Shown in pieces: positions 33,958-60,636 of a stretch of DNA of 64,000 nucleotides. The position numbers and the translations under genes are program-made. The stretch is from an uncultured candidate division Zixibacteria bacterium (GTDB lineage Bacteria; Zixibacteria; MSB-5A5; UBA10806): NCBI GenBank assembly GCA_963801605.1, contig CAWDFP010000006.1:1664879-1728878 (forward strand), given 5' to 3'. The notes beneath the pieces were generated by a model. It did no database searches. It saw nothing but the letters and a program-made list of their open reading frames with translations, and had not been told where the DNA came from. Every line of letters starts with the position of its first letter. Positions within the stretch are counted from its first letter, which is position 1.

Positions 33958-34009
33958 TAAATATTGACATATTTTGACAATTGCATATCTTCTGCCTGAG
34001 GCTACGAAA

Positions 34010-36902: not shown

Positions 36903-36949
36903 GAACGCACTATCTGATTGCAGCCGCGCACGGCGCTTATGACCAGGAC

Positions 36950-39928: not shown

Positions 39929-41749
39929 TTGGCTGTGGGATTTATCCTTTCCCTGACCTCTCTTGCTTTTTGCCAGGGTGACGCCGGACGCGAGTCGCCG
40001 TTTTCGCTGGGTGCCGGCGCTCGCGGTATGGGTATGGGACGGTCGTTTGTCTCGTTAGGCGGGGATGCGTCCTCCGCATTTTCTAATCCGGCTGCAACCG
40101 CGACGATTGACCGTAGCGAGTTCATGGCTTTTCACACCTCGCTATTTATGAGCACCAATTATGATTGCCTGGCGCTGGCTCATCCGATAGGTGTTCTGGG
40201 AGTCTTTACCGTTTCGGCTGGACGGTTAGGGACTGGTAGTTTTACCGGACGCGATGCATATAACCGTCCCAACCAGGAAATTTCCGCATCCAATACGCAT
40301 CTGGGTTTATCATACGGCCGTGACGTAGGACGCGGTTTTGCCGCTGGCCTAACGCTAAAGGGAGTGGGGCAAGAGATTGGAAACAACTCCGGATACGGGT
40401 TTGGCCTGGACCTGGGCTTTCAGTATCGTCCAACAATGGCTAAGGGGCTGATTTTAGGGGTAGCATTTAACGATCTAATTCGTCCAAGTATAAAACTAAT
40501 TAATATTAAAGATAAATATCAAACCGAATCACGATACGGCATTTCATATAACAGGAAATTTTCAACCAGTGTTGCCGCCACCGGGGTATTCGAGGTTGAT
40601 AAAATCTCGGGAAGAAAAACGCACATTCACCCTGGCCTGGAATTTGCCTTCTATAACGATTACGCCCTTCGTATAGGTTATGATAAAGATCGCCCCACAT
40701 TCGGGGCCGGTATCGCCTACAGCGTTTTCCGTCTTGATTATGCTTACGAGGATATTCAGTATCTGGGCGGAAGTCATCGAGTTTCTTTGAGTATCTCTTT
40801 CGGCAAATCGGTTCGACGCAGTCAGACTGAGTTAATTGCCGAAGCAGTCCAGAGCGAAAAAGCAAACTGGCAAAAATCGCTCGATGAGAAAAAGATGTAC
40901 GATTTCGCCGCTTACATATATACCGCGGACAGCCTTCGAGGCCTTAATCAGTATCAGGATGCCATGTTTTTCTATGAACGCGCCCTGGCGTCTAATGAAA
41001 CATCGACCCGCGCCCGTACAATGTCTGACAGCATGATGACGCTGATTGTTGCTAATGCAGCATCTACCGCCCGCGATCAAAAGCGAGAGGACCTCATATC
41101 CAAAAGGGTTACGGCCGCGCTTGATGATTTCAAAGCGGGACGATTCAACGAAGCTATCGACCAATATGAATTGGCGCTTGAAATCGACCCAATGAATAAA
41201 AATGTTTCGGATCTGTTAAGTTCGGCCCGCGCCACTCGCCAGACGGAAATTGATAAAACCAGAGCCAACGCTCATTCCTTGCAGGCTAAAGGAGACTTCC
41301 CCGGCGCTCTGATCGCCTGGAATAGGGTTTTGGTGCTGGAGCCGACTGATCCCGATGCTCTGAGTAATATCGAAATTGCAAAAAAGGCGATTAATGTCAA
41401 CTCCCTGATGGCATCGGCGATAACCGCTATGAGCGAACAAAGATATTCCGATGCCGCCACTTTATTACAGCAGGCTCAAACAATCCGGCCTAACGACTCT
41501 ACCATTAAATCGCTTTTAGCCGAATCGAAAGCCAAGGCCGCACCAGTTACCAGCCTGGCCGATATCAAAGCTAACTCCGAGAACTGGGCTACCTACTTAA
41601 GTGGGCTTGAAAGCTACCAGGCAAGCAACTATAAAAAGGCGCTCGAAAGCTGGGAAAGCCTTCAGCAGTATTATCCGAATAACCCCGATCTTGAAAAGAA
41701 TATAAATCAGGCCAAACAGAGACTTTCTACCGAGGGCGGGAAAGATTAG
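39929..41749 (+). CDS. PorV/PorQ-like outer-membrane beta-barrel fused to a C-terminal TPR domain
   Basis: Signal-like N-terminus. GARGMGMGRSFVSLGGDASSAFSNPAA motif and alternating beta-strand segments up to ...HRVSLSISFGK. The last ~300 aa are TPR-like (ALEIDPMNKNV, VLVLEPTDPDAL, LQQYYPNNPDLE). Start codon uncertain (TTG 39929). Confidence 0.65.
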   Translation: MAVGFILSLTSLAFCQGDAGRESPFSLGAGARGMGMGRSFVSLGGDASSAFSNPAATATIDRSEFMAFHTSLFMSTNYDCLALAHPIGVLGVFTVSAGRLGTGSFTGRDAYNRPNQEISASNTHLGLSYGRDVGRGFAAGLTLKGVGQEIGNNSGYGFGLDLGFQYRPTMAKGLILGVAFNDLIRPSIKLINIKDKYQTESRYGISYNRKFSTSVAATGVFEVDKISGRKTHIHPGLEFAFYNDYALRIGYDKDRPTFGAGIAYSVFRLDYAYEDIQYLGGSHRVSLSISFGKSVRRSQTELIAEAVQSEKANWQKSLDEKKMYDFAAYIYTADSLRGLNQYQDAMFFYERALASNETSTRARTMSDSMMTLIVANAASTARDQKREDLISKRVTAALDDFKAGRFNEAIDQYELALEIDPMNKNVSDLLSSARATRQTEIDKTRANAHSLQAKGDFPGALIAWNRVLVLEPTDPDALSNIEIAKKAINVNSLMASAITAMSEQRYSDAATLLQQAQTIRPNDSTIKSLLAESKAKAAPVTSLADIKANSENWATYLSGLESYQASNYKKALESWESLQQYYPNNPDLEKNINQAKQRLSTEGGKD

Positions 41750-41808
41750 TCTTTACAGGGCTGTCCTGTGCCCTTAAATTTGTATAATAGAGGGGGCGGT
41801 ATAAAGTT

Positions 41809-44733
41809 ATGGCTCGAAAATTAGTAAAAGAAGTATTCATGACGTTCCCCGCAGCGGAGGATCAGCTTGAGGATATCCGCAGCAGTGTGCGAAATGTGCT
41901 TTCCGAGGGTGACCTTTCTGATAAGGCTGCCAACGGCGTACTTTTGGCTATCGAGGAAGCCTGTACTAACGTTATCCGACACGCTTACCTGTATGGACCG
42001 GGTGTTATCAGGATTAAGGTTAAGCTTTATCAAGATAGAGTAATTTTTTCCATATTTGATCGCGGGCGCAAATTCGATTTCGATCATTCCGAGGTGCCCG
42101 ATCTGGATCGTTATATTCGCACCGGCCGCAAGGGTGGCCTGGGCCTTTACCTCATCCGCAAGATGATGGATTCGGTGGAGTACTATTCCCGCGATGGCGA
42201 AAACGAGCTTCGCATGGAAAAACGCTCCGACCGGGCAACTGCCCGCGCCATTCGGCCTCGAGGTATTTCAATTCGTGTTAAATTTGCATTATGGGCATCG
42301 TTAGTTGTTTTCGCCATAGTAGCAGGAGTATATCTCTATTTCCAAAATCAGGTGCGATTAAATGCCGAGCAACGCTTTTTCTCGGGCGCCGATAATAGTA
42401 TCAATTCCTTTGTCTCCGATATTGGCGATAAAACCGTCTTGAGAGACCCCGATCTCATGCGATCCGCCGATACCTGGCTGCGCTCCAACACCGATTTTTC
42501 CTATGTCATCGTAACTGATACCGCCAATATTATTATCGCTAATCCTCTTGCTTCCAGGGATTTTCTGACGGAATATTTCCCTAAACCGGAGGGAGAATAT
42601 AATATCAAATTCGCCCAGGGCGATTCCGCCGGGCAAAAGGAATTTAATTTCAAATTGCCGGTTAAACTTCGCGATCAAGTGGTGGGATATGCATATTTCG
42701 GCCTGATGGAACGGCCTTTGCTTTCGGATATTAGCCAGGCGCGCCGGAATCTTTTTATAATCAGCTTTCTCGGTTTGGTGATCGGTTTTGTAGCGGTATT
42801 TGCGCTTTCGAATTATTTCGTAAAGCCGATTCAAAAGCTCACCGAAGGAGTTAAGCGGATTGGTGAGGGCAATCTCGATCAAACCCTGCCTATCGAAGGC
42901 GCTGACGAGTTTTCCGATATTGCCAGAGCTTTCAACGAGATGACCACCAAGTTTAAAAAGGCCCAGGAAAATGTCGTTGAACAGGAACGCATGCAAAAAG
43001 AAATGCAGGTCGCCCAGGAGATTCAGCACGCTCTCCTTCCGCGCCGTTTCCCCGATATTGAGGGGTACGATATCTCTACGGTCTACCGCGCCGCTAAGGA
43101 TGTGGGCGGTGACTATTTCGATTTTGTACAGATCGATGAGGATATCTTAGGTATCATCGTGGCCGATGTTTCCGGAAAGGGCGTACCCGGCTCACTGGTC
43201 ATGACCATGATCCGCACCGCCCTGCGGCTCGAAGCCAGGGAAAATTATTCGCCAACCGATATCCTGGCGAAAGTCAACCGATTCGTCACCGATGACGTCA
43301 AACGCGGCATGTTTATTACTATCTTCTTTATCACTCTCGATTCCGCCAAACGAACTATCTCATTCGCCTCGGCCGGCCATAATCCGATGATCCTCTACCG
43401 TAAGGATTCCGATTCCTGTTACTTCCTCAATACTCGCGGTATGCCGCTGGGAATAGCGCTTCCCGAAGGAGTTAGTTTCGAGGATTCGCTGGAGTTCGAT
43501 CGCGTCAAACTTAAAAAAGACGATATGCTCGTTCTCTACACCGACGGTATCACTGAGGCTATGAACAAAGCCGGAGAGCTTTTCGGAAACGACAGGCTGA
43601 TCCAATTCATCAAATCTCATTCTGAATTAGCCCCCGAGGAATTTACAAAAAAGCTCGATGCCGAATTGCATAAATTCACCGGCGGCGCCCCTCAGGGTGA
43701 TGATATCACCCTGGTTGTGATTAAAGAGAAGATGATGCTTGATGAGTTAGTTTTCGAAAAACGAAAACGGCTTATCGAGATGGTTGAAAACGAGGGTGTG
43801 CCCCTGGAGCAGGCTTGCGAACAGATGGGAATTTCGCCGTCTACTTATTATAAATATCGCCGTCGCTGGCTGAAGCTTGGGGATGTCGGTCTTCTCAATA
43901 AAAAGTTGCGCGCCGATTCGATTATCAGGCAAATTCCTTATGAGGTTCGAAAAGAGATCTTAAAACTGGTGCGGGAAAATCCCGATCTCGGTACCAAGCG
44001 TATCCTGGATGAACTCAATAGCAGAGGGATTATCGATATTGATCAGCGCGGGATATATGAAGAGATGATTCGCCTCCGGCTTAACACCAGAAAAATGCGT
44101 TTGGAATATGTCGAGAGAGTCGGCGGCCTGACGCCCGAGATGAGCGCCGAACTTGAAAAAGAGCTTCTAAAGGACAACGGTAAAAAAGAAGAGGTCGACC
44201 GCGGCGAATATCTGGAGATCATCAAGAAAAGCCTTGAATCAAAAAAGGGGCAGTTAAGTCCTGCGGCCAGGGAATTGGTTGAGAAGCTTCAGAAAATGGA
44301 GCCGGTTTTAGGGGATACCATCCTTTACGGCGAAATTGCAGCCGAACTAACCAAGCTGCGGGACGGCGAAGATATTGCCAGGCTATTTGAAAGTATTATT
44401 CTCAAAATGGCCAATATGACCAAAGAAAAGGCAGAAAACGAAGCAGCGGCTGCGCAGATCGCGGAGCGTCAGGAACAAGCTCCGCATGCCCCCACTGTCA
44501 AAGCTAATGGTATAATTGCCGCGTTGAATTCCGAGGCAATCCCAACGGAAACTGAACCTGAACAAGGATCGTCTGAATCTACAGTAGATTTATCCGAATT
44601 AAGCAAGGAAATTTCGCCGATAAATATAGTAGACTCAGCCTTAAAGATTGAGAACGAAAACGAAGGGGAGGCGCCAGGGTTCGACTGGGAGGAATATTCG
44701 CGCAAGCTTTCTGAGAAACACAAATCGAAATGA
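41809..44733 (+). CDS. fusion protein: RsbW-like serine kinase, 2-TM sensor, HAMP, PP2C/SpoIIE phosphatase, transposase-type HTH module, acidic tail
   Basis: Approximate positions follow. N-terminal HATPase_c_2 motifs (EEACTNVIRHAY, DRGRKFD, GGLGLYLIRKMMD) at 41809-42230. TM helices at 42280-42345 and 42750-42815. HAMP at 42820-42970. PP2C motifs (DVGGDYFDF, VADVSGKGVPGS, SAGHNP, YTDGITEA, DDITLVV) at 43000-43735. HTH (QMGISPSTYYKYRRRWLKLGDVGLLNKK...LGTKRILDEL) at 43780-44110. Confidence 0.85.
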   Translation: MARKLVKEVFMTFPAAEDQLEDIRSSVRNVLSEGDLSDKAANGVLLAIEEACTNVIRHAYLYGPGVIRIKVKLYQDRVIFSIFDRGRKFDFDHSEVPDLDRYIRTGRKGGLGLYLIRKMMDSVEYYSRDGENELRMEKRSDRATARAIRPRGISIRVKFALWASLVVFAIVAGVYLYFQNQVRLNAEQRFFSGADNSINSFVSDIGDKTVLRDPDLMRSADTWLRSNTDFSYVIVTDTANIIIANPLASRDFLTEYFPKPEGEYNIKFAQGDSAGQKEFNFKLPVKLRDQVVGYAYFGLMERPLLSDISQARRNLFIISFLGLVIGFVAVFALSNYFVKPIQKLTEGVKRIGEGNLDQTLPIEGADEFSDIARAFNEMTTKFKKAQENVVEQERMQKEMQVAQEIQHALLPRRFPDIEGYDISTVYRAAKDVGGDYFDFVQIDEDILGIIVADVSGKGVPGSLVMTMIRTALRLEARENYSPTDILAKVNRFVTDDVKRGMFITIFFITLDSAKRTISFASAGHNPMILYRKDSDSCYFLNTRGMPLGIALPEGVSFEDSLEFDRVKLKKDDMLVLYTDGITEAMNKAGELFGNDRLIQFIKSHSELAPEEFTKKLDAELHKFTGGAPQGDDITLVVIKEKMMLDELVFEKRKRLIEMVENEGVPLEQACEQMGISPSTYYKYRRRWLKLGDVGLLNKKLRADSIIRQIPYEVRKEILKLVRENPDLGTKRILDELNSRGIIDIDQRGIYEEMIRLRLNTRKMRLEYVERVGGLTPEMSAELEKELLKDNGKKEEVDRGEYLEIIKKSLESKKGQLSPAARELVEKLQKMEPVLGDTILYGEIAAELTKLRDGEDIARLFESIILKMANMTKEKAENEAAAAQIAERQEQAPHAPTVKANGIIAALNSEAIPTETEPEQGSSESTVDLSELSKEISPINIVDSALKIENENEGEAPGFDWEEYSRKLSEKHKSK

Positions 44734-45473
44734 TCAAATTAGCCATCTTGACAGCCAAAGGCGGTACCGGGAAAACCACAACGGCCATCAATCTGGGCCA
44801 CGGTTTGGCGCTATCCGGAAGGCGTGTGCTGATTATTGATTGTGATCCTCAAGGCTCGGCCTCAGCCGCTTTTGGAATCAATGGCGAACACGGATTGGCA
44901 GATCTTCTCCTGGACGGAAAAGTCGATATATTCCAGGTTCGGCCCCATCTTTATTTGGTACCATCAGGACGAAAACGTTTGGCGGAACTCGAAATCAAAC
45001 TGGCGGCCCGTCCGGATCGCCTGGAACGTCTAAAAATTGCGCTTGCCAGGCTTTCCGGCTGCGATTGGGTTATTTTGGATTGCTCTCCATCAATAAATGT
45101 AGTAAATTTGAATGCCTTAGGTTTTGCCGATAAACTTTTAATACCCTCCTCACTTGATTACTTTTCTCTGGAGGGTGTAAAGTCGACCATGGAGTTGACC
45201 GTCGAATTGGCGGCAAATGGAGCAGGGAAGCTTGAAATATTGGGGGTTTTGCCGACATTTTACGATAAGAGGACAAGCGTTTCGCGTATGGCGCTTGAGA
45301 CCCTTAGAAACACTTATGGCAAAATGGTATTTGATACCGAAATCAGGCTTAATACCGAGATTAAAAAGTCGCAGTGGTATAAAAAAACGGTTTTTGAGTT
45401 CGCTCCCTATTCACATGGGGCTTACGATTACTATAAATTGGCAAAGGAAGTCCTGGAAAGGATACAGGTTTGA
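44730..45473 (+). CDS. ParA/MinD-family ATPase
   Basis: Deviant Walker A KGGTGKTT, IIDCDPQGS. ATGA overlap with the upstream fusion gene. Confidence 0.9.
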   Translation: MIKLAILTAKGGTGKTTTAINLGHGLALSGRRVLIIDCDPQGSASAAFGINGEHGLADLLLDGKVDIFQVRPHLYLVPSGRKRLAELEIKLAARPDRLERLKIALARLSGCDWVILDCSPSINVVNLNALGFADKLLIPSSLDYFSLEGVKSTMELTVELAANGAGKLEILGVLPTFYDKRTSVSRMALETLRNTYGKMVFDTEIRLNTEIKKSQWYKKTVFEFAPYSHGAYDYYKLAKEVLERIQV

Positions 45474-45479
45474 GGGGAT

Positions 45480-46193
45480 ATGAGCGATATTAAAATCTCT
45501 CTCGACAGTTCGGGGCCAAAAGGCGAAATCTCCATCGTCCGCGTCGACGGCGTCATCGATACCATGACCGCTACCGATTTGGAAAAGGTAATGAATTCCC
45601 TTCTAGAACGACGCCGTTATAACGTAATTATCGATCTTGGCGGAGTCGACTACATCTCATCCGCCGGATGGGGTATTTTTATTTCCAATATCAGGGAGAT
45701 TCGTCAGCATTCCGGCGATATCAAACTGGCCAGAATGATTCCCAATGTATATGAAATTTTCGAGTTATTGGAATTTGATAGTATTCTCAAAGCTTTCGAT
45801 AGCGTCGAAAAGGCCAAGACCGATTTCGATGGCATTAAAAAAGCGGTATCTGATGACGAAAGCAAAGAAGCCGTGCCTCAGGCCACAACCAAGATGGAGA
45901 CTAAGATTGTCAAACCGGATACCTCCGGCGTTCCTCAAACTACGAAGCCGATAGATCCCCAGCCCACAGCCAAAACCGAATTTCCTGTTAAGCTTGAGCC
46001 GCATGATGTGGTTATCGAGATGATTTCCAAGGATCCCTTTCTAACTATTTCCGAAATCAAAAGCGAAATTGCCAAAAAACATCCCGAATTGAGGGTTGGC
46101 TGGTGGAAAATCTGGGGGATATTGAAGCGCGAGAAACTTCTTGGCAGGAAAAATCGGTTTCGTAAAGCCCGGCTTAAATCCGGAGGCAATTGA
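45480..46193 (+). CDS. STAS-domain protein (anti-sigma-factor-antagonist type) with C-terminal extension
   Basis: STAS core with the conserved phospho-acceptor context IIDLGGVDYISSAGWGIFI. This is followed by a P/T/K-rich linker and a basic helical tail (VIEMISKDPFLTISEIKSEIAKKHPELRVGWWKIWGILKREKLLGRKNRFRK). Confidence 0.85.
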   Translation: MSDIKISLDSSGPKGEISIVRVDGVIDTMTATDLEKVMNSLLERRRYNVIIDLGGVDYISSAGWGIFISNIREIRQHSGDIKLARMIPNVYEIFELLEFDSILKAFDSVEKAKTDFDGIKKAVSDDESKEAVPQATTKMETKIVKPDTSGVPQTTKPIDPQPTAKTEFPVKLEPHDVVIEMISKDPFLTISEIKSEIAKKHPELRVGWWKIWGILKREKLLGRKNRFRKARLKSGGN

Positions 46194-46197
46194 AAAC

Positions 46198-48039
46198 ATG
46201 TCCAATTCCAGGCTCTGGCTTATAATTTTTTCCCTATTCTTCTTTTGCCTTTTGGCATTCGGGGTGGCGATTGTCTTAAAAACAGCCTGGATCACCGCTT
46301 TAGTAGTCGTACTCGTTTTAGCGATCTCGGCCGTTTTAATAATTTCCTTCAATAAAACTTCGCGGGATTTAGCAATTCTATCGAAAATTACCCAGCCTGT
46401 AAAATCTACAGAGAACATTTTAGCCTTTAGGCTTTTAGCCGAACTTGACCTCTCCGCTATCGAGAAAAAATCGCCGGCCTTGAAAGCCGCTGAATTAATA
46501 AGGGAGAAATTCCAGCTTGAAAGTTTCGCCATATTCTTCCGTGAGGAAGATAAATATATCCCCAAGATTTACTCCGGAATAAACAGGATCGGCCTCGCTG
46601 CGCCGCCAATCCAAAAGCTAAGCCCCGCAATGAAAAGCAATATCAATATTGGGGCTTTGTCCAGTGATGAGAGTGATATCCTGACAGCATTCAAACGCGA
46701 TGGAGTTAATATCGCTTCCTCGATGATAGCCTTCGCTTATTCCTGGAGCCGGATGCACTCGGTTTATCTGATTGCCGACGATTCTCTCGGACGATTTTCC
46801 GAATCGCTGCGAGACTCTGAATTCAACCGCATTTTCTGGCCCGGTCTGGATAATGAATTAAGGCAAAATCAAAAATTTCTGGAAAGAGGGCAGGAGGTTC
46901 GTGAACTTGGCCGCCAGTTGGATCAAGCCAAAAAGGACATTGGCGATTTAAACAGGGAGCTTAAAAATAAGCTTTTGGATCTCAGGGCTTTCGTAAATAT
47001 ATCCAGCGATCTCTATTCGCTTTTCAGTGAAGAAGAGCTGCTTTCCAGGCTCAAACAGATAGTATGTGAAAAGCTTGGCGCCGCTTCAGCCGAAATCCTG
47101 GTACCTTCCGGTGATAGCCGTTTCATTCCCCACGCTGCCGGTGATGCCGGTCAGGCTGCTATGGACCTGTCATTGGATTCCGAATCGGAATTGGCAGAAC
47201 TTATTTCAAAATCGCCTCGCCCCGTGTTACTGCCGTTGGCCGGGTCAGGTTTTAAGCGCAACGAACCTTTCCTTCGAGCAGCCCTGACTTTGAATTTTCA
47301 GATAGCCTCGGCGATCAGAACCTCCGGGCATACGGCTTGTGTACTGATGGTTTCTCAGAAAAAAGATAAGACTCAGTTTACCAATCTCGATCTCGATGTT
47401 TTATATATAATTACCAATATTGCATCACTGGCGCTCGACAATATCCATCAATATTCAACAATAGAAAAATTATCTTATACCGATAGCATGACGGGGATTT
47501 ATAACTACCGATACTTTTACAAACGTCTTAACGAAGAAATTTTGCGCGCCAAACGTTACGACCGTGAACTGGCGCTGGTCATTCTCGACATCGATAATTT
47601 TAAATCCTTTAATGATAATTTCGGTCACCAGGCCGGAGATCTGGTACTAAAGCAATTGTCTGATTTGATTACCAAAACTATTCGTTCAATCGATGTGGTC
47701 AGCCGATATGGAGGCGAAGAATTCTGTATTATCATGCCGGATACCGGTATCGGCCATTGCCAAATATTTATAGAAAGGCTTCGTTCTCAAATTGCGGATT
47801 TTAAGTTTGAATCGAATCTTTTCCAAAAAGGCGGCAGTATATCGGTGTCGGTGGGAGGGGCGGTCTACCCGCAGCACGCTCCCATGCCCGATCGGCTCAT
47901 TTACTGCTCCGATATGGCGCTTCTCAAGGCTAAGGCGTTGGGACGAAATCGGGCTGTGATGTATGAAGCGGATATTTCCTTTGAGTCAAAATCCACGGAA
48001 GGGGGATTTAATGGAAGCCGTCAAGAATCGATGCTATGA
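46198..48039 (+). CDS. membrane-anchored GAF-GGDEF diguanylate cyclase
   Basis: ATG at 46198 (MSNSRLWLIIFSLFFFCLLAF), two TM helices, a GAF-like middle, GGDEF domain with active site RYGGEEF and I-site RSID five residues upstream. Confidence 0.88.
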   Translation: MSNSRLWLIIFSLFFFCLLAFGVAIVLKTAWITALVVVLVLAISAVLIISFNKTSRDLAILSKITQPVKSTENILAFRLLAELDLSAIEKKSPALKAAELIREKFQLESFAIFFREEDKYIPKIYSGINRIGLAAPPIQKLSPAMKSNINIGALSSDESDILTAFKRDGVNIASSMIAFAYSWSRMHSVYLIADDSLGRFSESLRDSEFNRIFWPGLDNELRQNQKFLERGQEVRELGRQLDQAKKDIGDLNRELKNKLLDLRAFVNISSDLYSLFSEEELLSRLKQIVCEKLGAASAEILVPSGDSRFIPHAAGDAGQAAMDLSLDSESELAELISKSPRPVLLPLAGSGFKRNEPFLRAALTLNFQIASAIRTSGHTACVLMVSQKKDKTQFTNLDLDVLYIITNIASLALDNIHQYSTIEKLSYTDSMTGIYNYRYFYKRLNEEILRAKRYDRELALVILDIDNFKSFNDNFGHQAGDLVLKQLSDLITKTIRSIDVVSRYGGEEFCIIMPDTGIGHCQIFIERLRSQIADFKFESNLFQKGGSISVSVGGAVYPQHAPMPDRLIYCSDMALLKAKALGRNRAVMYEADISFESKSTEGGFNGSRQESML

Positions 48040-49093
48040 AGCGATCTTGATTAAAATTGCATTAGCGCTATTTGGGCTGATTTTTATAGGGCAGTTTTGT
48101 GCTTTAGCGAGCGCCTCTGCTCAGGATACCGCCGGCAAACAAGCCCAGGCTAATGATCAAACCGTAAATCAGCCTCAAACCGGTCAGGAATCTTATGTTA
48201 TCGGTAACCTCGATATGCTGTCGGTAGCATTCTGGCAGCAACCGGATCTCAACCGCGATGTTCGAGTTGATGAGAACGGGATGATAAGTTTGCCGGTTAT
48301 CGGCGATATCAAAGCTGCCGGTTTGACGCCTAACGAGCTTTCCAAAAAAATCGTGCAGCAAATGAGTATCTACAACACTCCAGTCTCACAGGCAACGGTT
48401 AATGTCACCGAGTTTAACTCCCGAAGCGTGGTGGTCGCCGGTCGGGTTCTCACTCCGGGCAGCCGCCGATATGAAAAGATACCCGACGTTTGGCAGGTCA
48501 TTCTTGACGCCGGCGGACCTATGTCCGATGCCGACCTTTCACGCGTGACTATTGTCAGGAAAGAGGGCGAGAAATCTAACGTTATCAATGTAGATATATA
48601 TAAGATCATTCAGTCGGGCGACCTTGCTAAAGCTCCTCAGCTTCAGCCGGGAGACCTGGTCAACGTTCCCATATCCAGTTATGGCACGAATATAAGCATG
48701 TCCCTACCCACTCAACCCAGATTTGAAGGCAGAAATATATTTTTCGTCTTTGGACAGGTTGTCGAACAGGGTCCGCGGAACCTTGAAGAGGGAATGGATG
48801 TTTTGGACGGGATTGCGCTTGCCAGAGGGTATACTCCTGATGCCGATCTCAAGCACGTTAAAGTTATAATGAAGGACGCTAAATATTCTAATGTCATAAA
48901 GCTGAATTTGGAAAAGTATATGTCAAGCGGTCAGCCTCCCAGAATAATGCTTCATCCGGAGGATACCATAATTGTGCCCACCCGAAGCAGTTTCTTCACA
49001 ACCGCCATGTCGCATCTGAATACTATTCTGCCTGCACTGGGCACTACGGCGACCCTGGTACTTGTGATAAGAGAAATTCAAAGGAATCCCTGA
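48011..49093 (+). CDS. polysaccharide export protein (Wza family: Poly_export and SLBB domains)
   Basis: ATG at 48011 after GGAAGGGGG. YVIGNLDMLSVAFWQQPDLNRDVRVDENGMISLPVIGDIKAAGLTPNELSKKI is the Poly_export pattern. Confidence 0.85.
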   Translation: MEAVKNRCYEAILIKIALALFGLIFIGQFCALASASAQDTAGKQAQANDQTVNQPQTGQESYVIGNLDMLSVAFWQQPDLNRDVRVDENGMISLPVIGDIKAAGLTPNELSKKIVQQMSIYNTPVSQATVNVTEFNSRSVVVAGRVLTPGSRRYEKIPDVWQVILDAGGPMSDADLSRVTIVRKEGEKSNVINVDIYKIIQSGDLAKAPQLQPGDLVNVPISSYGTNISMSLPTQPRFEGRNIFFVFGQVVEQGPRNLEEGMDVLDGIALARGYTPDADLKHVKVIMKDAKYSNVIKLNLEKYMSSGQPPRIMLHPEDTIIVPTRSSFFTTAMSHLNTILPALGTTATLVLVIREIQRNP

Positions 49094-49253
49094 TGAACCT
49101 GGCTTATGGTTTTGAACGGTTGGGCATTGAATTTTCCAGCGAACAAAAACCATAATTACCGTCTAAAATGAAATAGCGGGCTTGCGAAAGTTAGAATATT
49201 AATATATACATTTTGATGTATCAGGATAATTATTAAATCTCGAAGGTAGTGCT

Positions 49254-50840
49254 TTGGAAAACGAAAAATCGCAAATAGATTTAAGAAGTTACTGGGCTAT
49301 TCTGGGAAGGCGCAAAGCGCTTCTGATCTTGCCGCTTATGATTGTGCCCCTGGTCGCATTCATCATAACTTATTTTATGAAACCGACCTATGTTTCAACC
49401 GTGTCCATTCTGATTGGCGATACTATGGTTTTACCTACTCCAGTTCAACAGGATGTACAGGGTCGAAACGGCGGATACGATTATCGAAGCGCCCAGGAAT
49501 TGCAGAGTTCTTATCTAAATCAGATCACATCGACGAAATACCTGAAACGCCTTATTGCCGTTCTTAATATCCCGATCTCGGAAGAAGTTAAGCGCATGGT
49601 CGCTTTAACCAAGGCCAATTACCCCGATGTTACTGAAAGCGATCTGGCTGAAAATATCCTTTCCGACCAGCTTCGCAAAAGGGTCATGGTCTCGATGAGA
49701 TCCAACAACCTTATCGATCTCTCGGTTGTATCCATAGATCCGATCAGCGCACGGAAAATGGCGGCGGCCCTGGCAGATATCTTCATTGAAGAGAACCTGG
49801 CATCCGAACTGGCCGGGATTCGCTCCAGTATTTCCTTCTCAGAAGATCAACTGGCATTTTATAAAGATAAACTTAAAGAAGCCGAGGATAAGCTTCGCGA
49901 CTTCAGGCAGGGCATCTTATCATCATCGTTCGGCCAGGATACCAGCTCGATCAATCTCAGGGAGATTGCCTCTGCGGTTCAGACGCTGGATATAGAAATA
50001 TCCAATGAACAGGAACAGCAGGCCGGCCTGCGTTCAGCGCTGGATCAGGAAAGCGTCGATGTTTCCGCATTTACACTGCCTCCCGGAGTCAGCACTCTCA
50101 GGGATAGACTGCTTGGTAATGTCAACCAGCTTGCTAATCTTCTTACAAGTTATTCCTGGCGAGATGCCAAGGTTGTGAGTCTTAATGAGGAGTCCCGCGG
50201 CCTTATCACTGATATTACCACTCAGATTCGTACCTGGGCGGAGCAAAAATATGCCGCATCACCTGCTAATGTACGAGAGACTATCATCGAATATCTCGCC
50301 GGTAATATTGTCACCGATTTTAATCATGCCAAGCGCGCCAGCCTCGATTCATATATAGGGAAAACCAAAACGAAGCTTGGCGAGGACCCGGGAACCGAAA
50401 TTACCTTGCAAAGACTTCAAAGCGAGGTCGACAGTTATAAGAGATTCTATGACCTCTTCGTTTCTCATTCCCAGAATGCTGCTATCAACCAATCGGCCAT
50501 AAAAGTTGAGGCCGAGGCTAAATATACCATCATCAGGCCGGCTTCTCTGCCCCTGGCGCCTGATTCGCCAAATAGATTTCGGATTTTTGGCATGGGTATC
50601 GCCTTAGGCCTGGTATTGGGATTTGGCGCTATTCTGACTGTCGAGCTTCTTGATGATTCCTTTAAGAAAATTGAAGATGTGACCCACTACTTGAAACTGC
50701 CCGTCATCGGAACCATCCCAAGAATGGAGCTTCCCTTTGGCAACTCCTCGAAAAAAAGATTTCCGATAATAATTGGCTTGGGCATCAGCATGGTGCTCAT
50801 CATGATTATAGTATTCTTACATTTTAAGAAGAACGGATAA
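49254..50840 (+). CDS. polysaccharide chain-length determinant (Wzz/GumC-type PCP, no kinase domain)
   Basis: N-terminal IDLRSYWAILGRRKALLILPLMIV TM helix, long coiled periplasmic region, C-terminal TM helices. TTG start in the track. Confidence 0.8.
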   Translation: MENEKSQIDLRSYWAILGRRKALLILPLMIVPLVAFIITYFMKPTYVSTVSILIGDTMVLPTPVQQDVQGRNGGYDYRSAQELQSSYLNQITSTKYLKRLIAVLNIPISEEVKRMVALTKANYPDVTESDLAENILSDQLRKRVMVSMRSNNLIDLSVVSIDPISARKMAAALADIFIEENLASELAGIRSSISFSEDQLAFYKDKLKEAEDKLRDFRQGILSSSFGQDTSSINLREIASAVQTLDIEISNEQEQQAGLRSALDQESVDVSAFTLPPGVSTLRDRLLGNVNQLANLLTSYSWRDAKVVSLNEESRGLITDITTQIRTWAEQKYAASPANVRETIIEYLAGNIVTDFNHAKRASLDSYIGKTKTKLGEDPGTEITLQRLQSEVDSYKRFYDLFVSHSQNAAINQSAIKVEAEAKYTIIRPASLPLAPDSPNRFRIFGMGIALGLVLGFGAILTVELLDDSFKKIEDVTHYLKLPVIGTIPRMELPFGNSSKKRFPIIIGLGISMVLIMIIVFLHFKKNG

Positions 50841-50845
50841 TAATT

Positions 50846-51964
50846 ATGCCTCCGATTGGATTTACGGATAAGTTCAGACGTTTGGATCGCGAATACCTGA
50901 TGCAAACATCGGTAAGTGAAGCTCGCAAGGCGATCGTTTGTTCGCTTTTTCACTCGGGTTTGCTGATTAACTCCCGGACTTTTCCATTGCCGCCCAATCT
51001 CGAAGGCGACGCTTTATTGGAAAAAGTGGCCAAACATCATGAGCATTGCCTTTCGGATATCAACTCCCTGTTGGGTCTTGTGGAGCGCATGAAAGAACTC
51101 GATAAGCCGGAGATCATTGAAAAACTGGGACGAACTCTCTGTTCGCATGAACTATACGATGAGGGATGCAGCCTGTTGGATTACGCTGTTCAAAAGTACC
51201 CCGAATCTCCCGGACTACGGTTTGCGTTGGGACGGATTTGTCTGGCTAAGGGAAAATTCGAAGAGGCCTGTGAGCAGCTATCGCGGGCGGTGGAGTTGGC
51301 GCCAGTATATCCCGATTACCGTAATCTTCTCGGCGTTGCTTTTCTTAAGACCAATAAACCGGTAGCAGCCATAGACGAATTCCGTAAAGCTGTGGAAATC
51401 AATATTTATTATGATGAAGCATATTTCAACCTGGGCCTTGGATATATATTGAATGGGATTGTCAAAGAAGATTTCAATCTGGCAAAAAATCTTCTGCACA
51501 ACTGTCAGGAAACATTTCAAAAAGCTGCTCTATTTAATCCCGCCTTTGGCACTGAGGAATATGAAAAAGGCATGGCGCTTTTAAGTGAGGGTCAACTGGA
51601 ACCAGCTTATGAAATTCTTGGCAACGTTGGCAGGGACGCTGTCAATCATCGCGCCGACGAAAAGCTGCTTGAAATGTATATGCGCTATATTTACGGGCAA
51701 CCGGGGTTAACCGAAGCCGGGATAAAGCAATATCTCGAGGAAGTAAGCGAGCTTCTCAAATCCAATCCGGGGCATGCCGATCTGCACAACGAACTTGGTA
51801 TGGCTTATATGATAATGAGCAAATTCCTGAACAATAAAGCAATGGAGCACTTCCAGGAGGCATTGAGGATTAATCCCAATTTCCTCAAGGCCGCCAGGAA
51901 TCTCAAGCTTTCTCAGAATGATCTGAAAGGCTTTGAGGTCCTGCTGGACGCGATTATCAGATGA
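50846..51964 (+). CDS. TPR-repeat protein
   Basis: TPR-like repeats (AVELAPVYPDYRNLLGVAFLKTNKPVAAIDEFRKAVEINIYYDEAYFNLG, ALRINPNFLKAARNL). Confidence 0.7.
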   Translation: MPPIGFTDKFRRLDREYLMQTSVSEARKAIVCSLFHSGLLINSRTFPLPPNLEGDALLEKVAKHHEHCLSDINSLLGLVERMKELDKPEIIEKLGRTLCSHELYDEGCSLLDYAVQKYPESPGLRFALGRICLAKGKFEEACEQLSRAVELAPVYPDYRNLLGVAFLKTNKPVAAIDEFRKAVEINIYYDEAYFNLGLGYILNGIVKEDFNLAKNLLHNCQETFQKAALFNPAFGTEEYEKGMALLSEGQLEPAYEILGNVGRDAVNHRADEKLLEMYMRYIYGQPGLTEAGIKQYLEEVSELLKSNPGHADLHNELGMAYMIMSKFLNNKAMEHFQEALRINPNFLKAARNLKLSQNDLKGFEVLLDAIIR

Positions 51965-52674
51965 ACGATAGAAAGCAGATGTCATTATTATCGGTTTATC
52001 ATAAAGAATCGGCGATCGGCACCGAGTTTCGTCGCTTGTATTCCAATATCAGAAGTAAAAGTCAGGGTCGGAAAATTCAAAACCTGATGATTACATCCGC
52101 TACGGTGGGGGAGGGCAAATCGCTGACCAGCAGTTTGCTTGCCATAACCATAGCCGAGCTTACCAAGCTCAAAGTGGCGTTAGTTGATTTTGATTTGAGA
52201 CGCCCCAAGATTTCAAGTTATTTCGGTCTGGAGAACGACGGTGGAGTAGCTGACGTTTTAACCGGCAAAGCGTCGTTAAAAGCGGTCTCACAAAAGACTA
52301 CTGCCCCGAATTTGACTGTTATTCCCGCCGGGCATCTGGATAAGCTTCCCACCGACGTACTTGAACATGAGCATGTCGCCAATTTCTTTCAAGAATTGAA
52401 ATTCTATTTCGATCAGGTTATAGTTGATACCCCTCCTATTATTCCCGTTTCAGATCCCATGCTCCTGGCCGAGCATGTCGATAGCGTCATTCTCGTGATA
52501 AGGGGAGGCTCCACCCAAAGAGATGTCGTCAGCAGGGCGTCCAATCTTCTGATCAACGCCAATATTGATATCCTTGGAGTGGTTCTTAATGATTTCGAGG
52601 AAGTCCTACCGTATTATTACAAGGAAAAATATTACGGGTATCATTATTATCACAAAGATTTAAAGATTGAATGA
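51961..52674 (+). CDS. BY-kinase (CpsD/CapB-type tyrosine autokinase)
   Basis: Walker A TVGEGKS, Walker A' VDFDLRRP, Walker B VIVDTPP, C-terminal tyrosine cluster YYYKEKYYGYHYYH. ATGA overlap with the TPR gene. Confidence 0.85.
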   Translation: MNDRKQMSLLSVYHKESAIGTEFRRLYSNIRSKSQGRKIQNLMITSATVGEGKSLTSSLLAITIAELTKLKVALVDFDLRRPKISSYFGLENDGGVADVLTGKASLKAVSQKTTAPNLTVIPAGHLDKLPTDVLEHEHVANFFQELKFYFDQVIVDTPPIIPVSDPMLLAEHVDSVILVIRGGSTQRDVVSRASNLLINANIDILGVVLNDFEEVLPYYYKEKYYGYHYYHKDLKIE

Positions 52675-52901
52675 CACATCTCAATAAATGCTGCAATGCA
52701 TTATTTCTGCATTTATTTGCATAATCGACTGATTTTGTTTATTCCAATTTAGGGATAATTCCTATTAATTTTCCGCGAGCACGAAACCCGGCCTTATTTC
52801 TGGTTTTGTAAGTTATTATATTTTATGAACTTACAATACCTATGATGCGCTTGTCTCTTAAATAATTTTTTAACGCAAACTTAATCCTCGTGGCTTGTTC
52901 G

Positions 52902-52917
52902 TGGCAGCAAATTTGCA
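52902..52917 (+). promoter_or_regulatory. sigma-54 (-24/-12) promoter candidate
   Basis: TGGCAG-CAAAT-TTGCA versus consensus TGGCAC-N5-TTGCW; about 60 nt before the ATG at 52976. Confidence 0.55.
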
Positions 52918-52975
52918 TTAAGAGGGAGCAAAAGGGGAAATCTTAAATTAGATAATTTTTATCGGAGATAGATTA

Positions 52976-53875
52976 ATGAGATACCAATATCCTGTGCCAA
53001 ATCCTCTCGGACATTACTGGGATGAAGAATCCGTCAGAGTATGGGGCATTAAACTCGGGATTTCTAAAAAAGCCGGATATTACCTGAGCTACTTTCTGGG
53101 CGAAATAGTTTTAGCCAATTTCTTTATGTTATATGCGCTTATCCTAAATCAGGCCTTGCTTCTTGGTTCAAAGAGGGCAGTAGCCAGAGTTTCTCACCGC
53201 ATTGATATTGGCTCGATTGCTAAAAGATCGATTGATATCGTTGGAGCCATAGTTGGTTTGATTTTAACCTTGCCACTTTGGTGCTTAATCGCCGTCGCGA
53301 TAAAGCTTGAATCCAAGGGGCCAATCTTCTACAAACAAGAACGGGTTGGCCAGAATAGACGCCGTGGTGATCGGCGTGCTGTAATATTGACAGGCCAGGA
53401 AAGACGTATTCAGGCGGATCGTCGTAAAACGCCCGGCCATGGAATGACTTTCATGATTGTGAAGTTCCGCAGTATGCGGCAAGATGCTGAATCCTATAGC
53501 GGCCCTGTTTGGGCGCAGAAGAAGGATCCTCGTATAACCCGCGTTGGACATTTCCTGAGAATCACCAGGTTGGATGAACTTCCGCAGTTTATCAACGTTC
53601 TTATCGGAAATATGAGCCTGGTTGGCCCTCGCCCTGAAAGACCGTTTTTCGTCAACGATCTTCAAACTAAAATTAAAGATTACACTGCTCGTTTTGATGT
53701 TAAGCCCGGCATTACTGGTCTGGCTCAAGTCGAACACAAGTATGACGAAAGTATTGAAGATGTTTCCAAGAAGATTTCTTATGATCTTCGATATATCCAC
53801 AACTGGACCGTTTTTCAGGACGTTAAGATCATCATGAGAACCGTGATCGTGGTTTTAACAGCTCGCGGTATGTAG
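52976..53875 (+). CDS. priming sugar transferase (bacterial sugar transferase family, polyprenyl-phosphate glycosyl-1-phosphate transferase)
   Basis: [20 protein letters not shown]...[11 protein letters not shown]...[10 protein letters not shown]...[38 protein letters not shown]. Contains an Arg-rich insertion (53351-53443). Confidence 0.9.
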
Positions 53876-53896: not shown

Positions 53897-53922
53897 AAGG
53901 GGGATTGTATCCCCCTTTTTTA
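53897..53922 (+). terminator. rho-independent terminator
   Basis: AGGGGGAT-TGT-ATCCCCCT followed by a T6 run. Confidence 0.75.
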
Positions 53923-54902: not shown

Positions 54903-54912
54903 GAGGGGATAA

Positions 54913-57915: not shown

Positions 57916-57969
57916 TTTGCTTTACCCCCGGTGGCTTTATATTTCCAGCATGCTTCCGAAAAGAGTAAT

Positions 57970-60136: not shown

Positions 60137-60550
60137 ATGAGAACGGGAAACAAAAAAGGCTTCACACTGATTGAGCTTATGATCGTGGTGGTCATTATCG
60201 GCATCCTGGCCGCTCTGGCAATTCCGCGTTTCATGCGCTCAACCACTAAAGCCAAACAATCGGAAGCCAAGCAGCTTCTAAAGCAGATCTACACCATGCA
60301 GCACGCCTACAGGCAGGAATTCAACGCTTACTGCCTTAACGGTGTCACCGCTGCTGCCAGTAGCGCCAACTTTGCCAGAATCGGCGTTGATGTAGGCGCC
60401 TCCGCACGTTACAGCTATGCCATGGTCTCCGCCGCTAACACCTTCACCTGCACGGCTACGGCCAACCTTGACGATGATGCCACTGTTGATACCTGGACCA
60501 TCAACCAGGATGGCACATTAGCTTGCACAATCGACGATTCAGTAACTTGA
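60137..60550 (+). CDS. type IV pilin-like protein, copy 1
   Basis: Class III signal MRTGNKKG/FTLIELMIVVVIIGILAALAIPRF; C-terminal Cys pair (FTCTATANLDDDATVDTWTINQDGTLAC). Confidence 0.9.
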   Translation: MRTGNKKGFTLIELMIVVVIIGILAALAIPRFMRSTTKAKQSEAKQLLKQIYTMQHAYRQEFNAYCLNGVTAAASSANFARIGVDVGASARYSYAMVSAANTFTCTATANLDDDATVDTWTINQDGTLACTIDDSVT

Positions 60551-60558
60551 TGAAACGA

Positions 60559-60600: not shown

Positions 60601-60636
60601 AACTTGAAAACGATGATCTACTTTAGGGAGAACAAA

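Follow-up and report, generated by a model that had tools for sequence, protein, structure and literature searches.

A partner switch, a diguanylate cyclase and polysaccharide export genes share a conserved locus in Zixibacteria

Results

We analysed a 64-kb stretch of DNA (the window) from an uncultured member of the candidate phylum Zixibacteria, a host unrelated to Vibrio, as an earlier reading of the sequence (hereafter the original prediction) had supposed. Pfam and NCBIfam profiles placed nine genes at 41809-53875, all on the plus strand, and bore out the domains and gene order that had been claimed for them. These genes, their upstream neighbours and the associated sequence elements were as follows:

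33974..39923, +, gene of a giant surface protein (CARDB; T9SS type A sorting domain at the C-terminus, weak)
39929..41749, +, outer-membrane beta-barrel of the PorV/PorQ family with TPR repeats in the same protein (NF033709, 111 bits; cutoff 90)
41752..41780, +, sigma-70-like promoter TTTACA-17-TAAATT, from a promoter scan
41809..44733, +, bifunctional membrane-anchored switch enzyme (the fusion), 974 aa (Pfam, NCBIfam, topology, fold search)
44730..45473, +, ParA/MinD/BcsQ-like P-loop ATPase, deviant Walker A (KGGTGKT)
45480..46193, +, STAS switch protein (profile, fold and structure-model evidence)
46198..48039 (alternative ORF start 46141), +, membrane diguanylate cyclase (Pfam, NCBIfam, topology)
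47963..49093 (ORF), +, Wza-type outer-membrane polysaccharide export protein, Poly_export and SLBB (Pfam, NCBIfam)
49254..50840, +, Wzz/PCP chain-length co-polymerase, GNVR motif, N- and C-terminal transmembrane (TM) helices
50846..51964, +, TPR protein, 372 aa (profile matches)
51961..52674, +, cytoplasmic BY-kinase, Walker A/A'/B motifs (TIGR01007, 141.6 bits; cutoff 108)
52697..52721, no strand assigned, triple TGCA element, spacings 11 and 10 nt
52902..52917, +, sigma-54 -24/-12 element TGGCAgcaaatTTGCA
52976..53875, +, polyprenyl-phosphate sugar-phosphate priming transferase (Bac_transf), conserved Arg-rich insertion
53899..53914, +, terminator-like GC hairpin and T-run, directly 3' of the transferase gene

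The fusion combined an RsbW-type kinase domain (HATPase_c_2, residues 13-138), two predicted TM helices (159-177 and 315-333), a weak sCache_3_2 match, a HAMP domain (333-380) and a SpoIIE/PP2C domain (446-639), followed by a transposase-type HTH and an acidic tail; the Cache-like part is a periplasmic loop between the two TM helices. The best named matches were RsbW and SpoIIAB for the kinase domain, and SiaA (NCBIfam) and PDB 6k4e (deposited under the name 'putative serine phosphatase') for the PP2C part. Across 11 aligned sequences (45-78% identity to the window protein) there was no variation in the N and G boxes of the kinase, in the Asp residues that bind metal in PP2C or in the HTH residues. 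We read both enzymatic parts, the RsbW-type Ser kinase and the PP2C phosphatase, as intact, with both predicted to lie on the cytoplasmic side of the Cache-like loop and HAMP. Its transposase-type HTH, a conserved HTH_23/HTH_32 module (residues 650-775), had been overlooked earlier.

The start of the ParA-like gene overlaps the fusion stop by 4 nt, and the gene was kept in Zixibacteria and Krumholzibacteriota and missing in one locus (L075). In the STAS protein, the STAS domain (residues 1-126) gave SpoIIAA and RsbV as best fold matches (TM-score normalised to target, 0.86) and carried Ser60 and Ser61 within an invariant DYISSAGWG motif; with Ser60 at the canonical phospho-site, the protein is a likely substrate of the fusion. 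A disordered linker leads to a conserved, helical HTH-like C-domain (residues 174-234, about 60 aa), also overlooked earlier, which was modelled as a confident helical bundle (pLDDT 87) and has invariant DPF, GWW and basic residues. Fold searches with this domain returned mostly DNA-binding HTH proteins, all weakly (best E=0.47, none significant), and weak HTH_Tnp_Tc3_2 matches were found in 6 of 19 STAS homologues.

Directly 3' of the STAS gene, as always in Zixibacteria, lies the cyclase gene, whose product has TM helices at its N-terminus, then a domain of unknown type, a coiled coil, a weakly matching GAF-like region and GGDEF, and matches SiaD (NCBIfam). It had been called a GAF-GGDEF cyclase with intact GGEEF and RxxD I-site; GGDEF and both motifs stand, the I-site lying five residues before GGEEF and the pair being kept in 34/34 orthologues checked, while the GAF match was full-length but weak and sub-threshold (GAF_2 E=0.0075).

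The four genes from Wza to BY-kinase come after the cyclase gene with gaps of ≤6 nt or overlaps, except for a 160-nt Wza/Wzz gap. Because a signal-like hydrophobic stretch occupies residues 28-46 of the Wza ORF, its true start is probably near 48030; orthologues are 318-335 aa long. The BY-kinase ends in a tyrosine cluster (YYYKEKYYGYHYYH), and its orthologues (n = 27) have 3-8 Tyr within the last 22 residues, with 6-8 in all except L075. Genes for Wzx, Wzy, Wzb phosphatase or glycosyltransferases were absent from the 64-kb window, and the locus yielded neither a PilZ domain nor a riboswitch as c-di-GMP receptor.

Upstream, the giant surface protein gene was a conserved neighbour in both Zixibacteria and Krumholzibacteriota; the region is collinear with positions 2488-8118 of the related locus L001, where a single 1876-aa ORF corresponds to four ORFs in the window. 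The PorV/PorQ-TPR gene lay directly 5' of the fusion gene in 63/64 loci with sufficient sequence. Within the 59 nt between this gene and the fusion gene, CTTTACA and a TAnAAT-like -10 aligned across 9 loci, and the regulators and export genes sit together behind this conserved sigma-70-like promoter.

We then compared 80 distinct related loci, with fusion proteins 42-73% identical to that of the window. The order fusion-ParA-STAS-cyclase was present in 31/31 Zixibacteria-type loci. It was followed by same-strand Wza-Wzz-TPR-BY-kinase in 24 of the 80 loci; in 2 further loci the export block was inverted yet adjacent to the regulators, 1 had an insertion between the two blocks, and the export block was missing in just 1 locus among those with sufficient sequence. 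The original prediction had named synteny of regulatory and EPS genes beforehand as a test, and since regulators and export genes were syntenic phylum-wide, it survived this one. By these comparisons the linkage is conserved throughout Zixibacteria, and the block may be a conserved cell-surface and matrix cluster of that phylum, a description to which we give about as much credence as doubt.

The transferase gene appears to be a separate unit, with the TGCA element upstream, a sigma-54 promoter and the terminator-like hairpin. The element TGGCAgcaaatTTGCA, 59 nt 5' of the gene, is the sole exact TGGCA-N6-TTGCW in 64 kb, a single occurrence that is not significant by itself (0.22 expected; at least one in 21/100 shuffles). 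A sigma-54 element occurred at the homologous position in 15/15 distinct loci with the transferase (17 when duplicate fetches are counted), its GG/GC conserved and its spacer variable. The promoter predicted before this gene is therefore conserved as well as exact in the window; one Zixibacteria clade had neither the transferase nor an element at this position. Sigma-54 seems to drive the priming transferase only, and no other gene of the locus. In 83 loci, the 10 kb around the fusion gene contained no gene for a sigma-54 activator; one lies elsewhere in the window (22289-23314), implying that the organism uses sigma-54. The triple TGCA, ~180-205 nt 5' of the -24 element, was unique in the window (expected 0.05) and recurred at the same place in 15 fetched loci, with one other match among the 83. 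Most transferase-bearing loci share it, alignment A2 shows no change in any of its columns, and it may be an enhancer or the binding site of a regulator.

Zixibacteria and Krumholzibacteriota both have the fusion, ParA and STAS together with the TPR, PorV-like and giant proteins. In Krumholzibacteriota the switch adjoins those same genes for T9SS cargo and a PorV-like protein, the TPR protein gene is again conserved next to the ParA gene, the fusion polypeptide includes three STAS domains in cis, and no cyclase, Wza, Wzz or BY-kinase gene lies near the switch core. Because the core occurs there without cyclase or export genes nearby, the cyclase can be neither the sole nor the ancestral output of the switch. 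The switch appears from this distribution to predate its polysaccharide link, which contradicts the proposed ancient coupling to EPS.

Discussion

The cyclase had been regarded as an addition to the switch, but the principle is not new: in SiaABCD and in HsbR/HsbA/HsbD, too, a diguanylate cyclase is under the direct control of a partner switch (PMC7647112, PMC8457831, PMC5085249), and by analogy these systems appear closer working models than syp. In SiaABCD of P. aeruginosa, a kinase and a membrane phosphatase of HAMP-PP2C type determine whether a small switch protein is phosphorylated. This protein, folded like an anti-sigma antagonist, activates the diguanylate cyclase of the same operon by binding, with aggregation and biofilm as output (PMC7647112, PMC8457831). 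The window proteins scored far below the SiaABCD equivalog cutoffs (95 vs 700; 148 vs 290). They differ in joining kinase and phosphatase across a periplasmic loop within a single polypeptide that also has an HTH, in a true PF01740 STAS protein whose site is a Ser and which has an additional C-domain where the SiaABCD switch protein is DUF1987 with Thr68, in a membrane-bound and much larger cyclase, and in having ParA-like and export genes in the same unit. In the HptB-HsbR-HsbA-HsbD system, also of P. aeruginosa, HsbR unites PP2C and kinase and toggles the STAS protein HsbA at Ser56, and HsbA binds the cyclase HsbD, raising c-di-GMP and biofilm formation (PMC5085249). However, HsbR is a receiver-PP2C-kinase protein under a phosphorelay and not a transmembrane sensor, HsbA has FlgM, an anti-sigma factor, as a second target, and the Hsb locus is flagellar rather than one of polysaccharide export (PMC5085249). 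The active forms also differ, SiaC being active unphosphorylated and HsbA phosphorylated.

The syp polysaccharide locus of Vibrio fischeri likewise encodes a fusion in which a kinase precedes PP2C, as well as a STAS protein of one domain, and its structural genes are transcribed by sigma-54 (PMC3610818, PMC4517449), but SypE carries a receiver domain at its centre (PMC3610818) where the window fusion has TM-Cache-like-HAMP and an HTH. Syp encodes the sigma-54 activator SypG and SypF, and has no cyclase, ParA or HTH. The label 'syp-like' therefore holds for the ingredients, by analogy, and fails on the receiver domain, the in-locus sigma-54 activator and the single sigma-54-driven gene. Syp has several sigma-54 promoters across 18 genes. 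Rv1364c of Mycobacterium tuberculosis is a PAS-linked protein of the cytoplasm with a tie to sigma factor F, and is not known to have an HTH or a polysaccharide or T9SS context. It resembles the window's switch in carrying PP2C, RsbW-type kinase and STAS, there in one polypeptide (PDB 3ke6), and the Krumholzibacteriota fusion, with its STAS domains in cis, comes close to that arrangement.

We favour a model, to which we give an even chance, in which a sigma-factor-independent partner switch sets local c-di-GMP synthesis and thereby polysaccharide production. A periplasmic signal would shift the fusion's kinase/phosphatase balance, and the STAS phospho-state would decide whether the protein binds and activates the adjacent cyclase (cf. 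SiaC/SiaD and HsbA-P/HsbD). The resulting c-di-GMP, its overshoot limited by the I-site, would raise polysaccharide production post-translationally at the Wzz/BY-kinase/Wza machinery. In a possible transcriptional branch, an unlinked c-di-GMP-responsive or two-component sigma-54 activator would act at the TGCA element and turn on the committed priming step, the transferase. We infer all of these interactions from gene adjacency and analogy; partner switch, c-di-GMP enzyme and polysaccharide export would together form a variation on the biofilm control circuits of Pseudomonas and Vibrio. In its favour are the catalytic motifs, the predicted topology, the STAS fold with its invariant Ser motif, the matches to SiaA and SiaD, the synteny, the conserved promoters and TGCA element, the precedents in Pseudomonas and the sigma-54 activator gene elsewhere in the window. 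Points against it are the switch core of Krumholzibacteriota with neither cyclase nor export genes near it, the failure to find a PilZ domain or riboswitch in the locus or a sigma-54 activator linked to it, the clade without a sigma-54-controlled transferase at this position, and the absence of Wzx, Wzy and glycosyltransferase genes from the window. The model also gives no role to the HTH-type modules of the fusion and STAS protein.

Alternatively, the switch might mainly govern the upstream T9SS-linked module (giant secreted protein and PorV/PorQ-TPR), with cyclase and export genes a later Zixibacteria insertion, co-regulated and not a direct target. This would fit the position of PorV/PorQ-TPR directly upstream of the fusion (63/64 loci) and the fact that both phyla share surface genes and switch but not cyclase, Wza, Wzz or BY-kinase. 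We consider it unlikely given that the conserved sigma-70-like promoter parts the fusion operon from the upstream genes in the window's clade, that loci L003 and L035 lack the upstream pair yet keep the full regulator-export block, and that the cyclase always comes immediately after STAS in Zixibacteria. It is distinctly unlikely, in our judgement, that promoter DNA, for example at the triple TGCA, is bound by the STAS C-domain, by the fusion HTH or by the two together, with access gated by phosphorylation or membrane-kinase capture and the cyclase as a parallel branch. Sigma-54 promoters require an AAA+ activator, for which neither protein qualifies, a membrane-anchored HTH would require DNA at the membrane, and the STAS C-domain is retained in the clade without TGCA element and transferase and has no significant fold match (best E=0.47). 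DNA binding is nevertheless suggested by the HTH_23/HTH_32 residues, invariant across two phyla, by the confidently modelled C-domain bundle (pLDDT 87) with its invariant DPF, GWW and basic residues, by weak matches mostly to HTH proteins, including HTH_Tnp_Tc3_2 in 6/19 homologues, and by the availability of an invariant TGCA element as candidate target.

The best named matches of kinase (RsbW/SpoIIAB) and STAS protein (RsbV/SpoIIAA) recall a classical anti-sigma partner switch, in which the kinase would sequester a sigma factor whose gene lies elsewhere, to be freed by STAS in its unphosphorylated form. Yet no sigma factor gene lies in or beside the conserved block in the loci examined, the kinase is membrane-tethered inside a sensor-phosphatase protein, and known fused kinase/phosphatase switches (SypE, HsbR, Sia) have other types of target, leaving this reading very improbable. 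Shared descent with the Vibrio syp regulatory cassette would account for a kinase preceding PP2C in one polypeptide, a STAS substrate, and Wza-type, Wzz-type and priming-transferase genes with a sigma-54 promoter in one locus (PMC3610818, PMC4517449). We regard such homology as extremely improbable: the fusion has no receiver domain, the locus has no SypG or SypF equivalent, only one sigma-54 promoter, and additional HTH, ParA, cyclase and TPR components, the sister phylum ties the switch core to T9SS genes, and these promiscuous domains have fused repeatedly (Rv1364c, HsbR, SypE).

For the export genes, PEP-CTERM-associated models gave the best NCBIfam names for Wza, Wzz, BY-kinase, TPR protein and transferase, with all five proteins below curated cutoffs. 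XrtA/PEP-CTERM exopolysaccharide loci have the sigma-54 response regulator PrsR. We saw no exosortase or PEP-CTERM proteins in the 64-kb window, whose surface proteins bear T9SS sorting domains. The locus also resembles Wzx/Wzy-dependent export in its Wza translocon, PCP/Wzz, separate cytoplasmic BY-kinase with Tyr cluster and Bac_transf priming enzyme, but differs in the missing Wzx, Wzy, Wzb and glycosyltransferase genes within the window and in the TPR gene placed between Wzz and kinase.

Switch, cyclase and export genes are conserved neighbours

The ORF listing together with Pfam and NCBIfam matches resolved nine co-directional genes between 41809 and 53875:

41809-44733 (+), 974-aa kinase/PP2C/HTH fusion protein
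44730-45473 (+), ParA
45480-46193 (+), STAS protein
46198-48039 (+), GGDEF cyclase
47963-49093 (+), Wza
49254-50840 (+), Wzz
50846-51964 (+), TPR protein
51961-52674 (+), BY-kinase
52976-53875 (+), Bac_transf priming transferase

Pfam and NCBIfam confirmed the domains and gene order of the original prediction for all nine. Between the fusion and the BY-kinase, neighbouring genes either overlap or sit 5-6 nt apart, with the exception of a 160-nt Wza-Wzz gap, and 301 nt separate the BY-kinase gene from that of the priming transferase. The BY-kinase carries Walker A, A' and B motifs and the C-terminal tail YYYKEKYYGYHYYH, and it scored above cutoff for TIGR01007; 26 of 27 orthologues have a Tyr-rich tail of 6-8 Tyr (3 Tyr in the related locus L075). 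The Wza-Wzz gap (49094-49253; 160 nt) is AT-rich with two sigma-70-like matches. In the related loci L001, L002 and L003, the two genes either overlap or are separated by no more than ~10 nt.

We then compared related loci by tblastn, using three contexts fetched by exact protein and 80 species-representative loci, which left 80 distinct loci after removal of three duplicates. A cyclase follows fusion-ParA-STAS in 31 of the 80 (Zixibacteria-type), in most of them directly after STAS; in L027 an insertion of ~5 kb separates the two. Wza-Wzz-TPR-BY-kinase continues on the same strand in 24/31 loci. The export block is inverted yet adjacent in two (L019 and L057; about 16050-22400), therefore linkage survives loss of co-transcription. 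In L027, Wza and Wzz come after the insertion and cyclase, and the fetched sequence stops within Wzz. Three further loci end at contig boundaries, and one (L025) has no export block. The export genes are conserved neighbours of the regulators and in most cases share their strand. The original prediction had linked regulation to export in an organism far from Vibrio, naming a lack of synteny in related genomes as grounds for abandoning the idea; the collinear Zixibacteria loci bear the linkage out. Separately, the inverted export block of L019 is followed by ORFs sized like deacetylase and DUF362 genes.

An XrtA/PEP-CTERM exopolysaccharide locus was considered and rejected, as TIGR03027, TIGR03007, TIGR03018, TIGR03013 and TIGR02917 all fell below cutoff. 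No exosortase was found among the window ORFs scanned, and the window as a whole showed neither Wzx nor Wzy nor an ordinary glycosyltransferase.

The fusion, STAS and cyclase proteins retain their signature residues

The fusion (974 aa) begins with an HATPase_c_2 domain of the RsbW/SpoIIAB type (Pfam and NCBIfam). Hydrophobic helices at residues 159-177 and 315-333 enclose a loop of ~137 aa, a weak single-Cache match in Pfam, and C-terminal to the second helix lie a HAMP domain and then a SpoIIE/PP2C domain. The C-terminus consists of an HTH_23/HTH_28/HTH_32 module, which the original prediction had not included and which resembles the N-termini of IS481/IS630 transposases, followed by an acidic tail. 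Full-length homologues shared 44-100% identity, and those with a named source were annotated as candidate division Zixibacteria. In an alignment of 11 homologues, the kinase residues E49, N54, H58, D84, G86 and G109-G112 were invariant, with the N and G boxes kept, as were the PP2C metal ligands D435, D453, D579, D631 and D632 and many residues of the HTH module; therefore all parts of the fusion appear to be under selection. The kinase and phosphatase domains are intact, and both face the cytoplasm in a protein built as a transmembrane sensor. We also considered whether the HTH module is a transposon remnant, and rejected this because there is no DDE domain and the residues are invariant across two phyla.

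Residues 1-126 of the STAS protein (237 aa) model as a SpoIIAA/RsbV-like fold (target-normalised TM-score 0.86), and the homologue alignment places Ser60 of the invariant motif DYISSAGWGIFISNIREI (DYISSAGWG) at the canonical phospho-site. The enzyme and substrate elements of an RsbW/RsbV-type switch were found: GHKL Ser kinase boxes, PP2C metal Asp residues and a STAS protein with a phosphorylatable Ser. A variable disordered linker leads to a conserved C-domain of ~60 aa in which DPF, GWW and several Arg are invariant; this domain was modelled confidently as four helices (pLDDT 87). In Foldseek searches the whole model returned STAS matches only. The C-domain alone matched mostly DNA-binding HTH proteins, none significantly; its best E was only 0.47, and therefore an HTH fold is suggestive only. 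Six of 19 STAS homologues weakly matched a transposase HTH family. We treat 'HTH-like' as a lead rather than a finding. Paralogy between the second HTH of the fusion and the STAS C-domain was dropped, BLASTP finding no similarity.

The cyclase (613-632 aa) carries RSID-VVSRY-GGEEF, present in the window as RSIDVVSRYGGEEF, and scored 162 bits for TIGR00254 against an NCBIfam cutoff of 37. As originally predicted, both the GG(D/E)EF active site and the RxxD I-site five residues before it are present, and both are kept in 34/34 cyclase orthologues checked. N-terminal to GGDEF, GAF_2, GAF_3 and GAF gave full-length, sub-threshold matches (E 0.0075-0.05, 15-17 bits), weak support for the GAF domain originally named. 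The protein is a membrane cyclase that looks active and bears an I-site.

A conserved sigma-54 element precedes the priming transferase gene

A perfect GG-N10-GC sigma-54 element, TGGCAgcaaatTTGCA, lies at 52902-52917, 59 nt before the transferase ATG. It is the lone exact match in 64 kb, where 0.22 are expected, so it is not significant by itself, and one-mismatch matches elsewhere in the window were at chance level (11 found vs 7.9 expected). The sigma-54-type promoter originally proposed at this place recurs in each of the 15 distinct loci (17 with duplicates) that have a transferase gene after the BY-kinase gene, 55-70 nt upstream of the start codon. It reads TGGCA-N6-TTGC in 16/17 loci, with a variable spacer and the GG and GC cores kept, and begins CGGCA in L020. 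Motif, start-codon distance and conservation among orthologues together mark it as a predicted sigma-54-dependent promoter. Approximately 180-205 nt upstream of the -24 element, at 52697-52721, is a triple TGCA element (spacings 11 and 10 nt) that is invariant in the alignment. It is unique in the window (0.05 expected) and occurs at the homologous place in 15 fetched loci, with one other match among all 83.

Nine loci share a sigma-70-like CTTTACA-N17-TAnAAT ahead of the fusion gene, and a terminator-like hairpin directly follows the transferase gene. In a second Zixibacteria clade, of the L002 type, genes for a polysaccharide deacetylase and a DUF362 protein take the place of the transferase, and both the sigma-54 and the triple TGCA elements are absent. 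The most economical reading is of two transcription units, with regulators and export genes expressed from a housekeeping-type promoter and the committed priming enzyme from a sigma-54 promoter that depends on an enhancer. Scanning 30000-60500 against Rfam returned nothing, c-di-GMP riboswitch included, and Pfam found no c-di-GMP receptor in the locus.

The sole NtrC-type activator gene in the window (22289-23314; AAA+/HTH_8) is found 19.5 kb before the fusion gene and is preceded by a gene for a PAS histidine kinase (19961-21979). The ORF for the receiver of the activator (21976-22383) uses a different frame, with the junction near 22375-22390, a split that reflects either an indel error or a pseudogene. 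None of the 83 loci has an activator homologue within 10 kb of the fusion gene, and the window itself showed no rpoN.

The switch core occurs without nearby cyclase and export genes in Krumholzibacteriota

Directly upstream of the fusion gene, a gene at 39929-41749 encodes a PorV/PorQ-family beta-barrel fused to TPR repeats (above the NCBIfam cutoff), and the gene before that encodes a giant CARDB protein whose T9SS sorting domain is a weak match. A PorV-like gene precedes the fusion gene in 63/64 related loci from two phyla. The second phylum is represented by a Krumholzibacteriota set in which a few records are labelled Latescibacterota, and for which ORF and Pfam details were taken from one locus, L071. 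These loci begin with the giant protein and PorV-TPR genes, and their fusions share ~42-46% identity with that of the window. The L071 fusion (9956-14131; 1391 aa) continues beyond the HTH into three STAS domains in cis, and it is followed by ParA, the same TPR protein (372 aa) and two free STAS genes. Of the 27 Krumholzibacteriota-type loci with enough sequence, 23 have ParA, the TPR protein and STAS.

In the flanking sequence retrieved, none of these 27 loci has a cyclase, Wza, Wzz or BY-kinase gene on the strand of the fusion gene. The switch core is present there without them, and therefore it is older than the link to c-di-GMP and polysaccharide. From this comparison, joining the switch to c-di-GMP and export looks like a Zixibacteria innovation rather than ancient coupling. 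Of the convergent or ancient coupling originally suggested, synteny upholds the linkage, and the absence of cyclase and export genes near the Krumholzibacteriota core speaks against 'ancient'. Comparing the two phyla should make it easier to see how a signalling module acquires another output.

Comparison with known partner switches and alternative outputs

The original prediction described the locus as syp-like. Both systems have a STAS substrate with a conserved Ser, although the window STAS has an extra C-terminal domain. In SypE, however, a central receiver sits between the kinase and PP2C domains (PMC3610818), whereas the window fusion has transmembrane helices, a weak single-Cache match and HAMP at that place and no Response_reg match in Pfam. 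The syp locus also contains the sigma-54 activator SypG and a sensor kinase, and the window locus has no linked activator. Common ingredients notwithstanding, 'syp-like' is too specific for a locus without a SypE-type receiver or an in-locus SypG. SiaABCD differs as well, since the fusion scored 95.3 bits against SiaA (equivalog cutoff 700) and the cyclase 147.7 against SiaD (cutoff 290), and its switch protein is a Thr-phosphorylated DUF1987/SiaC rather than a PF01740 STAS with a Ser-Ser site. As a multi-domain fusion, the window protein recalls Rv1364c (PDB match). The locus is a member of no named family, and our literature searches found no description of its arrangement. Several features are new: kinase, sensor, phosphatase and HTH reside in a single polypeptide, STAS carries an additional helical domain, ParA and the TPR protein are conserved partners, T9SS genes lie alongside, and the switch is physically merged with Wza/Wzz/BY-kinase genes.

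By analogy, the locus would work most like SiaABCD and HsbR/HsbA/HsbD. Unphosphorylated SiaC binds the SiaD cyclase and changes its activity (PMC8457831, PMC7647112), and phosphorylated HsbA does likewise with the HsbD cyclase (PMC5085249). For the window locus we infer, from these precedents, that the transmembrane sensor of the fusion would set the phospho-state of STAS, which in one phospho-form would bind the cyclase and alter its activity; c-di-GMP would then promote polysaccharide synthesis and export, and may additionally promote activator-dependent transcription of the priming enzyme.

Three other outputs were weighed, none of them mutually exclusive with this cyclase-directed model. 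Control of the T9SS surface module is unlikely; PorV-like genes accompany the core in both phyla, and in Zixibacteria a cyclase follows the core. Direct DNA binding by the HTH modules appears somewhat less probable again; the module in the fusion has invariant residues, and the HTH fold of the STAS C-domain is suggestive only. We regard a classical anti-sigma function as very improbable. The kinase is of the RsbW type, and no sigma factor gene was found within the conserved block in the window, the three fetched contexts or L071. A broader reading combines several of these elements. It is a partner switch without a sigma factor in which phosphorylation would gate release of a DNA-binding STAS from the membrane sensor, STAS and an unlinked sigma-54 activator would act on the triple TGCA site as an enhancer of the transferase gene, and T9SS adhesin display would be coordinated with polysaccharide export across two uncultured phyla. 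We consider it doubtful, a little more so than direct DNA binding by itself.

Only a few partner switches with targets other than sigma factors are known, all of them proteobacterial (Sia, Hsb and Syp), and the target of SypA is still unknown. Here the same partner-switch logic has become fixed throughout a whole uncultured phylum of the FCB group, and a single unit holds everything from sensor, kinase and phosphatase to STAS, cyclase and export machinery. Control appears cleanly split between a housekeeping-type promoter for regulators and export and a sigma-54 promoter with a conserved upstream element for the priming enzyme. STAS Ser60, the triple TGCA site and the two HTH modules offer testable parts.

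Genes flanking the block

The giant-protein gene (33974-39923) is represented by four consecutive ORFs (538, 457, 230 and 768 aa) collinear with one repetitive 1876-aa ORF in L001. Together, the split giant gene and split activator suggest frameshift errors in the assembly or real decay. Two T9SS cargo proteins (FG-GAP and LVIVD repeats, Por_Secre_tail) are encoded at 23475-26332, shortly downstream of the genes for the histidine kinase and the activator.

Within its Bac_transf domain, the priming transferase has an Arg-rich insertion of ~28 aa (53336-53431, residues ~121-152; NRRRxxRR ... DRR[KQ]) in 14/14 aligned orthologues, which might be a regulatory or nucleotide-binding loop. Beyond the transferase, 54183-59718 includes a PEGA/DUF5683 protein gene that is conserved after the transferase in related loci, along with genes for a 717-aa fn3 protein, a 245-aa protein without matches and a TMEM260-like GT-C protein. 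Further on, 60137-62405 holds three type IV pilin-like genes in tandem (N_methyl + ComP_DUS) and, after them, a prepilin peptidase gene.
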